A stretch of DNA of 64,000 nucleotides, taken from NCBI RefSeq assembly GCF_024700885.2, contig NZ_CP117016.1; one strand, given 5' to 3'. This stretch comes from Escherichia coli (GTDB lineage Bacteria; Pseudomonadota; Gammaproteobacteria; Enterobacterales; Enterobacteriaceae). Positions 51,632 to 52,543 of the stretch are shown here, in pieces. Position numbers and translations under genes: made by a program. The first letter of the stretch is position 1; every line of letters begins with the position of its first letter. Below the pieces are notes generated by a model, which was not told the DNA's origin, searched no databases, and saw only the letters and a list, made by a program, of their open reading frames with translations.

Positions 51632-52543
51632 ATATTATCACTTACTGGCGGCTCATACTGAGCTGGTTAATGCTGTGCACACACAAACAAGCAATTCCAT
51701 TTGTAATGTGCCTCCCTGGCAGTTTCATCCGGAACCCGGACGAAAGTAAAAATGCATATGAGTTGCACTAAAAAAGCGACTCACATTGTTCCGTTATAAT
51801 GCCTGAAGTAGATCACAGAATATATCTTCAGGAATCGCATATCTATTAAGTTACTCACTCTTTTGTATTTATGACATGCGCGTGTTTGTATAAATGTAAA
51901 TGTGAGTCCTTGTTCCACTCTCGTGCAGCATCGCTGGTCATACGCGAACACGTACAAACAGCAATGGTGAGGCGGCATCAAGAGCAGGGATCCGTCATTT
52001 ATGCGAGCATTTTACCCCAAAAACCTTTTATTTATAAGGGTCATTGCGAATTATCTGATGCAAAGTTATGTTATGTTAGGCAAAGTAATCTTCTATTATT
52101 AATAAGCACAACAAAACCTTTTTGAATATTAAATAATTAGCATCATCCTCATTCATTAATCCCGCTTAACAATAGTTTCACACCTTGCACCCATTACGAC
52201 ACCTCGGAAATCATCACGCTGTTAAACTCTCCGTAATGCGGAAATATCATCATCACGATTCATTAGTGAATTCTTAAACGAGGCATTTTCAAACAATTAT
52301 CTTACAGATAAAAAAACCACACTCACAATTAAGAATCAGAACAATTCACTACATAACATTAATTACTAAGCATATACACCTCATTATTTTGCCATTATTA
52401 AGTTATTAACAGCACAATCGAGTCTTCCCCTCTGGCAAAATCTTATTCTGCAGACCTTCAAAACGCCGTCCTGGGGGAGTACATTGTTCTAAGCTGACTT
52501 CCACGGCAGGGAGTGGCGATAACAGCAAAAAAGGTCAAGATTC

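Follow-up and report, generated by a model that had tools for sequence, protein, structure and literature searches.

The interval between the divergent genes lrhA and alaA of Escherichia coli is, very likely, a composite regulatory region whose largest functional piece, a 371-nt leader of lrhA controlled by small RNAs (sRNAs), is already known from papers of 2014, 2023 and 2025. We studied this interval (51632-52543, exactly 912 bp) in a stretch of 64,000 nucleotides of contig NZ_CP117016.1, here called the window. In the mechanism we propose, lrhA is transcribed from a promoter at 52037..52009, with its start at 52002, to give a structured leader of 371 nt. This leader is bound by Hfq, and its conserved 3' part would offer UhpU, ArcZ and RprA their pairing sites, in or close to the ribosome-binding region, so that less LrhA is made. 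Through this control, the LrhA regulon (flhDC, fimbriae, rpoS, CRISPR-Cas) would respond to sugar-phosphate, oxygen/ArcB and envelope/Rcs signals. Lrp and OmpR occupy the intergenic region in vivo. Upstream of the lrhA promoter, some 450 bp of AT-rich DNA would serve lrhA and alaA as shared regulatory DNA, with one family-conserved element at -120 to -180 and another abutting the -35 hexamer. On the alaA side, a short and conserved promoter would give rise to a leader of about 52 nt, which opens with a conserved stem-loop.

The lrhA side of the interval contains the following features, with positions relative to the lrhA start codon in brackets:

52002, minus strand: lrhA transcription start site (TSS), where the published lrhA-lacZ fusion fragment begins; the -10 hexamer lies 7 nt upstream
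51632..52002, minus strand: lrhA 5' untranslated region (UTR) of 371 nt, Hfq-bound and targeted by sRNAs, placed by its published length and by primer mapping
52014..52009, minus strand: lrhA -10 hexamer TAAAAT, read from the sequence
52037..52032, minus strand: lrhA -35 hexamer TTATAA, read from the sequence, with a 17-nt spacer to the -10 hexamer
51663..51643 (-32..-12), minus strand: UhpU pairing site beside the ribosome-binding region, from a duplex scan against UhpU AACUGGUGAC..., including the validated C at 51647
51725..51709 (-94..-78), minus strand: predicted site at which CUGCCAGGGAGGCA (CCAGGGA) would pair with the ArcZ seed UUCCCUGG, the best ArcZ duplex at -19.7 kcal/mol
51632..51703, minus strand: conserved 3' leader segment, including GGAAUUGC, CACAGC and AGUGA before the AUG

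The length of 371 nt for the lrhA 5' UTR was published by Melamed et al. (2023), and the lrhA-specific 3' end of their primer SM079, ATAAATGACGGATCCCTGCT, is found on the minus strand of the window beginning at 52002. With a start this far upstream of the gene (well over 100 nt), the leader belongs to the class of long UTRs regulated by Hfq and sRNAs. To follow the promoter through the family, we scanned species-representative genomes for LrhA, which gave 80 loci from more than 20 enterobacterial genera, and aligned the 78 in which alaA is the divergent neighbor. The -10 column reads TAAGAT, TAGGAT or TAAAAT in 68 of the 78 species and the -35 hexamer is TTATAA in 63; judged by these hexamers, the promoter is of the sigma-70 type. 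A consensus promoter scan of the gap returned 2 matches, compared to 3.1 expected from shuffles, and overlooked both real promoters because of their weak -35 hexamers. The leader folds more stably than its shuffles (z = -2.38), and in the 78 species it is 334-587 nt long (median 400), assuming that the aligned -10 hexamer marks the TSS everywhere.

In the same study, RNA interaction by ligation and sequencing (RIL-seq) yielded chimeras of the lrhA leader with UhpU, ArcZ, RprA and McaS. A translational lrhA-lacZ fusion was repressed by UhpU, ArcZ and RprA; McaS had no effect on the reporter, despite its many chimeras with lrhA. For UhpU, pairing is direct: the single-nucleotide mutation UhpU-M1 abolished repression and the compensatory lrhA-M1 restored it (Melamed et al. 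2023). The published lrhA-M1 gBlock, in which GCCGCCAGT is changed to GCCGCGAGT, maps to the C at -16, which is position 51647 of the window, and the site sequence GCCGCCAGU is unchanged there, in the region 51655..51647. Our duplex scan, which used 22-nt windows and replaced a whole-molecule prediction rendered useless by unbounded internal loops, had placed the UhpU site before the gBlock sequence was seen, and the two sites are the same. By the same scan, ArcZ would pair at -94..-78 and RprA at one of two predicted candidates, the energetically best at -291..-270 (51922..51901) and the other at -46..-41 (51677..51672), on the motif CACAGC.

Hfq binding had been reported earlier by Bilusic et al. 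(RNA Biol 2014, PMC4152368), whose co-immunoprecipitation with Hfq and Northern blots showed an 'ig-lrhA-alaA' RNA with bands of 150 and 350 nt. They assigned the signal to a long lrhA transcript and the two shorter RNAs to fragments of its leader, and they found that lrhA mRNA accumulates in an hfq mutant. More recently, a 2025 PNAS paper reported UhpU control of lrhA as an acquisition of the Escherichia lineage and found the UhpU-binding sequence in lrhA to be identical in all 816 E. albertii strains surveyed. The earlier note on this DNA, made by a model that saw its letters and a list of its open reading frames (ORFs), had proposed a long regulated 5' UTR of lrhA as one possible content of the gap, and these published results bear it out. 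Since sRNAs act on the long lrhA leader, the gap was rightly flagged as functional rather than empty.

In the family alignment, the gap between lrhA and alaA is long throughout (764-1140 bp, median 943, with a GC content of 0.35-0.44), and it is therefore ancient and not a peculiarity of E. coli. Per-position identity of the 77 other species to the window resolves four conserved islands within it:

52444-52543: alaA promoter and leader, mean identity 0.62-0.83
52124-52183: AT-rich upstream element, mean identity 0.52-0.67
52004-52063: lrhA core promoter and adjacent element, mean identity 0.63-0.68
51632-51703: final ~72 nt of the lrhA leader, mean identity 0.63-0.74

The background is set by the remaining leader (0.27-0.43) and by a spacer at 52184-52443 (0.23-0.43). 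The earlier note had suspected that the gap exceeds the needs of two promoters, and the four islands speak for this. Within the leader island, GGAAUUGC (51698..51691, -67..-60) and CACAGC (51677..51672, -46..-41) are nearly invariant over more than 20 genera. The latter is complementary to a GCUGUG that RprA and McaS have in common; as a partner of GGAAUUGC, McaS is only a weak prediction.

At shorter evolutionary distances, we gauged neutral divergence by the 4-fold degenerate sites of lrhA and alaA. The identity of these sites to the window is 63-68% in L002, 47-51% in E. albertii and 41-48% in Salmonella and Citrobacter. L002 (NZ_JAATUR010000019.1) is a representative labelled E. coli SCPM-O-B-8794, which its low identity at these sites shows to be a separate Escherichia lineage; between the window strain and K-12, 95% of the 4-fold sites are identical in lrhA and 89% in alaA, so that alaA is fairly distant. 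The 51632..51703 segment is 100% identical in K-12, L002 and E. albertii, and even the less conserved part of the leader retains 82% identity in L002 and 73% in E. albertii. As this identity exceeds that of the 4-fold sites, sequence comparison indicates that the lrhA leader is under constraint within Escherichia.

Several observations weigh against this account of the gap. Beyond the genus, neither the remaining leader nor the 52184-52443 spacer can be aligned, and a sequence-specific role of these parts is therefore not supported. RNAalifold, applied to the 140 nt of leader closest to lrhA from 66 species, found no consensus structure, and explicit pair counting for two leader hairpins gave 64% paired, with covariation not clearly above shuffles. 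The length of the leader is also at issue. The transcript seen by Bilusic et al., of about 1.5 kb, is somewhat longer than a start at 52002 predicts, and differential RNA sequencing (dRNA-seq) in Salmonella gave an lrhA leader of 712 nt, so that a second, distal lrhA start may exist and transcription in the gap may extend beyond 371 nt. In S. arizonae, a TATTCT hexamer that ends 721 nt before the ATG fits such a distal start; the alignment gives its counterpart in the window:

52343..52338, minus strand: TGTTCT, counterpart of the -10-like TATTCT of S. arizonae

The hexamer is TATTCT in E. albertii and in L002, and TGTTCT in the window and in K-12. The G at its second position suggests that the distal promoter may be weak, lost or absent in E. 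coli.

The composition of the gap agrees with what the earlier note had described, a long and AT-rich interval between divergent genes. The flanking genes, in the order nuoB-nuoA-lrhA / alaA-yfbR, delimit it as follows:

50693-51631, minus strand: lrhA ORF
52544-53761, plus strand: alaA ORF

Its GC content is 0.385, versus 0.520 for the whole window, and only 2.5% of the 912-bp stretches are equally AT-rich. By section, it is 0.423 in the 371 bp next to lrhA, 0.333 in the central 454 bp (52003-52456) and 0.494 in the part adjacent to alaA. Taking ORFs of at least 100 aa as a proxy for genes, the gap ranks second largest among 53 ORF-free gaps in the window, whose median is 56 bp. The lrhA-alaA region was found in 5425 of 5426 complete E. 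coli genomes, chromosomal every time, and measures 919 bp in K-12 MG1655. One feature that the note had stressed does not stand out: runs of at least five A or T number 6 in the gap against 3.3 ± 1.7 in composition-matched shuffles, which is not significant.

At the alaA end, two features fall within the first island:

52457..52485, plus strand: predicted alaA promoter, with -35 TTCAAA (52457-52462), a 17-nt spacer and -10 TACATT (52480-52485)
52493..52517, plus strand: alaA stem-loop, with the stem ACUUCC/GGGAGU, the loop ACGGCA and the outer stem GCU/GGC, from folding prediction

TTCAAA and TACATT are near-invariant in the 78 species and the spacer sequence between them varies, the typical footprint of a promoter. 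The conserved -10 hexamer predicts a TSS near 52492 and thus a leader of about 52 nt, so that the hairpin, which begins at 52493, would lie within 1-2 nt of the 5' end. In an alignment of 65 distinct sequences, 91.8% of the cells of the stem are paired, compared to 26-65% in slid controls, and double changes occur in 19 cells, a count reached by none of 500 shuffles. One pair has switched from A-U to G-C in 12 sequences, and another alternates between U-G and U-A, which is compatible with RNA pairing only on the alaA-sense strand. The stem-loop is thus supported by covariation, and its base pairing is evolutionarily maintained. Over the ~65 distinct sequences, the ACGGCA loop and the two C-G pairs that close it are invariant. 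Each E. coli genome has one copy of the hairpin, at least 99% identical in 5420 of 5425 genomes.

Scanning metagenomes for the motif gave 120 matches. Six were on contigs with an alaA locus of enterobacterial type, about 30-45 nt upstream of the alaA start, and in three of these an LrhA homologue (66-68% identical) follows across a gap of 872-882 bp; the other 114 matches, on contigs without alaA, were discarded as chance. The hairpin has no Rfam match and no description in the literature we searched. A search for literature on the alaA promoter and Lrp produced nothing directly usable, and the RIL-seq supplement has no 'alaA' or intergenic entry.

In its predicted stability, its predicted 5' position and its compensatory pairing, the hairpin resembles the 5'-terminal stabilizing stem-loops of the ompA type, and a stabilizing role of this kind would be the most economical reading. 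Unlike those, however, it has a 6-nt loop and closing pairs that do not vary, an invariance beyond the needs of a 5' cap that works by steric means alone, which leaves room for a specific binding partner.

Between the two promoters, three stretches of the upstream DNA can be distinguished:

52043..52057, minus strand: conserved element CAGATAATTCGCAAT directly upstream of the lrhA -35 hexamer, from conserved columns of the 78-species alignment
52124..52183, no strand assigned: AT-rich upstream element, about -120 to -180 from the lrhA TSS, 78-species conservation 0.52-0.67
52184..52443, no strand assigned: AT-rich spacer with a GC content of about 0.33, its sequence divergence near neutral and its length conserved

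The element next to the -35 hexamer is similar to an RcsAB box, to which the Salmonella form TAAGATTATTCGTA comes closer; such a candidate element would fit reports of Rcs control of lrhA. Farther upstream, the AT-rich element reads ..TTTGAATATTAAA[TAATAAT]TAATTAGC..ATTCATTAAT..CTTAACAAT..TTCACAC on the plus strand, where the bracketed 7 bp are missing from the window strain. Seen against K-12 and all relatives compared, this TAATAAT deletion falls between 52133 and 52134; MLI114 is the only one of the 5426 complete E. coli genomes to have the gap in its 912-bp form. Within 52124-52183 we found TTAA-N6-TTAA and TGTGAAAC/TGTTAAG repeats, which, going by the respective consensus sequences, could suit a LysR-type transcriptional regulator (LTTR) or OmpR.

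Published binding data place global regulators in this DNA, as the earlier note had anticipated in proposing sites for nucleoid proteins. Chromatin immunoprecipitation (ChIP) followed by sequencing identified lrhA as a direct, Lrp-activated target, and ChIP of OmpR showed enrichment at the lrhA-alaA gap in both E. coli and Salmonella. Peaks of the RpoH and RpoE holoenzymes in the lrhA/yfbQ spacer were reported from genomic systematic evolution of ligands by exponential enrichment (SELEX). The literature describes lrhA as positively autoregulated, and transposon insertions in the gap lead to overexpression of lrhA in E. coli and of pigU in Serratia. We consider it possible, though on balance doubtful, that the gap holds two family-conserved cis-elements of which we found no description, the alaA stem-loop and 52124-52183, as sites for specific regulators. 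If so, the ACGGCA loop may be recognized by a protein or RNA that controls how much alanine transaminase is made or how stable the mRNA is, and 52124-52183 may be a control module through which OmpR, Lrp or LrhA serve both promoters, damaged in this strain by the 7-bp deletion.

Over 52000-52500, which covers the lrhA upstream region, the plus strand has a strong skew of C over G (-0.27 to -0.41), unlike its flanks. A special architecture suggested by the constant distance between the lrhA and alaA -35 hexamers (interquartile range, IQR, 420-429 bp in the 78 species) was dropped, as the neighboring lrhA-nuoA gap is equally constant (IQR 623-628 bp in 74 species).

Four other explanations of the gap were considered. 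The central 52184-52443 could be AT-rich filler that has no sequence-specific function and is kept either because it does no harm or because nucleoid proteins coat AT-rich DNA of any kind, a plausible proposal to which we incline only slightly less than to its opposite. Its divergence is close to that of the 4-fold sites (67% identity against 63-68% in L002, 42-45% against 41-48% in Salmonella and Citrobacter), in line with its low identity across the family. Yet its identity to E. albertii, at 62%, exceeds the neutral 47-51%, and the interval from the alaA -35 hexamer to the upstream element hardly varies (IQR 280-288 bp), while the leader ranges from 334 to 587 nt. The distal lrhA TSS of Salmonella also falls within this spacer, and insertions in the gap alter lrhA and pigU expression, although their exact positions are not mapped onto the window. 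That the leader acts instead as a cis-acting sensor independent of sRNAs, be it a riboswitch, a thermosensor or a Rho-dependent attenuator, seems unlikely to us. A sensor would explain why the leader is long, why it folds better than its shuffles and why, within Escherichia, all of it has diverged less than neutral sites, and Bilusic et al. could not exclude an sRNA-independent effect of Hfq on processing. However, the leader matches no Rfam family and shows neither a consensus structure nor clear covariation across the family. No part of it combines the high C and low G of a rut-like stretch: in windows of 78 nt, the C/G ratio peaks at 1.36 and is mostly 1 or less. Our literature search returned no paper linking lrhA with Rho.

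The two remaining explanations, both raised by the earlier note, would place a gene in the gap. An independent, trans-acting sRNA with its own promoter and terminator might account for the Hfq-enriched 'ig-lrhA-alaA' RNA and its 150- and 350-nt bands, but the same authors traced these to the leader of the long lrhA transcript, and the fragments have the sense of lrhA and map downstream of its TSS. Moreover, 51632-52543 contains no site resembling an intrinsic terminator, the sole match of the scanned stretch being at 52576-52595, inside alaA. An Rfam 15 scan of 50000-53000 at E <= 10 gave no relevant match: its five hits are at chance level (E 0.17-4.6), all far below gathering, and belong to snoRNA, miRNA and Aggregatibacter sRNA models, of which one, a eukaryotic snoRNA model, touches the gap. 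We therefore regard an sRNA gene as very improbable. A small protein or an upstream ORF in the leader is likewise very improbable. Its best candidate, a 28-codon ORF at 51728..51642 on the minus strand, starts with AUG, has the lrhA sense and is intact in K-12, L002 and E. albertii; but this is uninformative because the segment is 100% identical within Escherichia. The ORF runs across both the predicted ArcZ site and the validated UhpU site, and its stop codon lies 10 nt short of the lrhA AUG. Neither Salmonella nor Citrobacter has it intact, and conservation does not extend to its start codon, which is lost in Citrobacter. Of the 16 ORFs of at least 20 aa in the gap, none is intact in Salmonella. 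Besides this candidate, 14 are broken in the two Citrobacter species as well; the remaining one (52458-52538, minus strand), which stays open in Citrobacter, is antisense to alaA promoter and leader DNA that is highly conserved. RefSeq annotates no feature in the K-12 counterpart. Thus the note's statement that the gap is free of a convincing ORF stands, while its suggestions of an unannotated sRNA or small protein do not.

A composite region built around an sRNA-controlled leader has several known parallels. The rpoS 5' UTR of E. coli (~567 nt; Hfq, DsrA, RprA, ArcZ) is, like that of lrhA, a very long, Hfq-bound leader of a global regulator, and several sRNAs, including ArcZ and RprA, target both. 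In rpoS, sRNAs activate by opening an inhibitory hairpin. In contrast, lrhA is repressed by UhpU, ArcZ and RprA, and the site validated for UhpU lies right beside the ribosome-binding region. Both genes were listed among those with the longest leaders in the Salmonella dRNA-seq data. The leaders of flhDC and csgD resemble that of lrhA in that several Hfq-dependent sRNAs, ArcZ and McaS among them, converge on each within the motility/biofilm decision, with the difference that the lrhA leader is longer and that McaS does not affect its reporter. LrhA itself acts directly above flhDC.

Orthologous regulators of lrhA are pigU in Serratia, hexA in Pectobacterium and Photorhabdus, and rovM in Yersinia. 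The neighbor of pigU is also alaA, and insertions into the gap cause overexpression, as they do for lrhA. ArcZ reportedly pairs with hexA mRNA in Photorhabdus and Xenorhabdus. Compared to the upstream regions of these orthologs, most of the leader and spacer sequence is unconserved, even within Enterobacteriaceae.

LrhA stands at the top of circuits for motility, fimbriae, RpoS and CRISPR-Cas, and its leader is where sRNAs that respond to stress and nutrients act on it. To the published work, our analysis adds the exact mapping of the known elements onto this DNA and a family-wide map of the constrained parts of the gap. Three leads are mildly new as well: the 5' hairpin of alaA, the conserved AT-rich upstream element, which carries a strain-specific deletion of 7 bp, and a distal lrhA promoter that may differ between lineages.

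The gap on the other side of lrhA, towards nuoA (50064-50692), is likewise long and AT-rich, with 629 bp and a GC content of about 0.36-0.42, and presumably is a complex nuo promoter region. Other large gaps in the window that lack ORFs of at least 100 aa are at 4976-6084 (1109 bp), 29064-29790 (727 bp) and 26054-26657 (604 bp), and one 912-bp stretch of the window goes down to a GC content of 0.336. Among the loci collected in the LrhA scan, one (L060, CACSKA010000019.1) is labelled Chryseobacterium sp. 18061; it has a typical enterobacterial lrhA-alaA locus with an LrhA that is 78% identical, and the assembly is probably contaminated or mislabelled.

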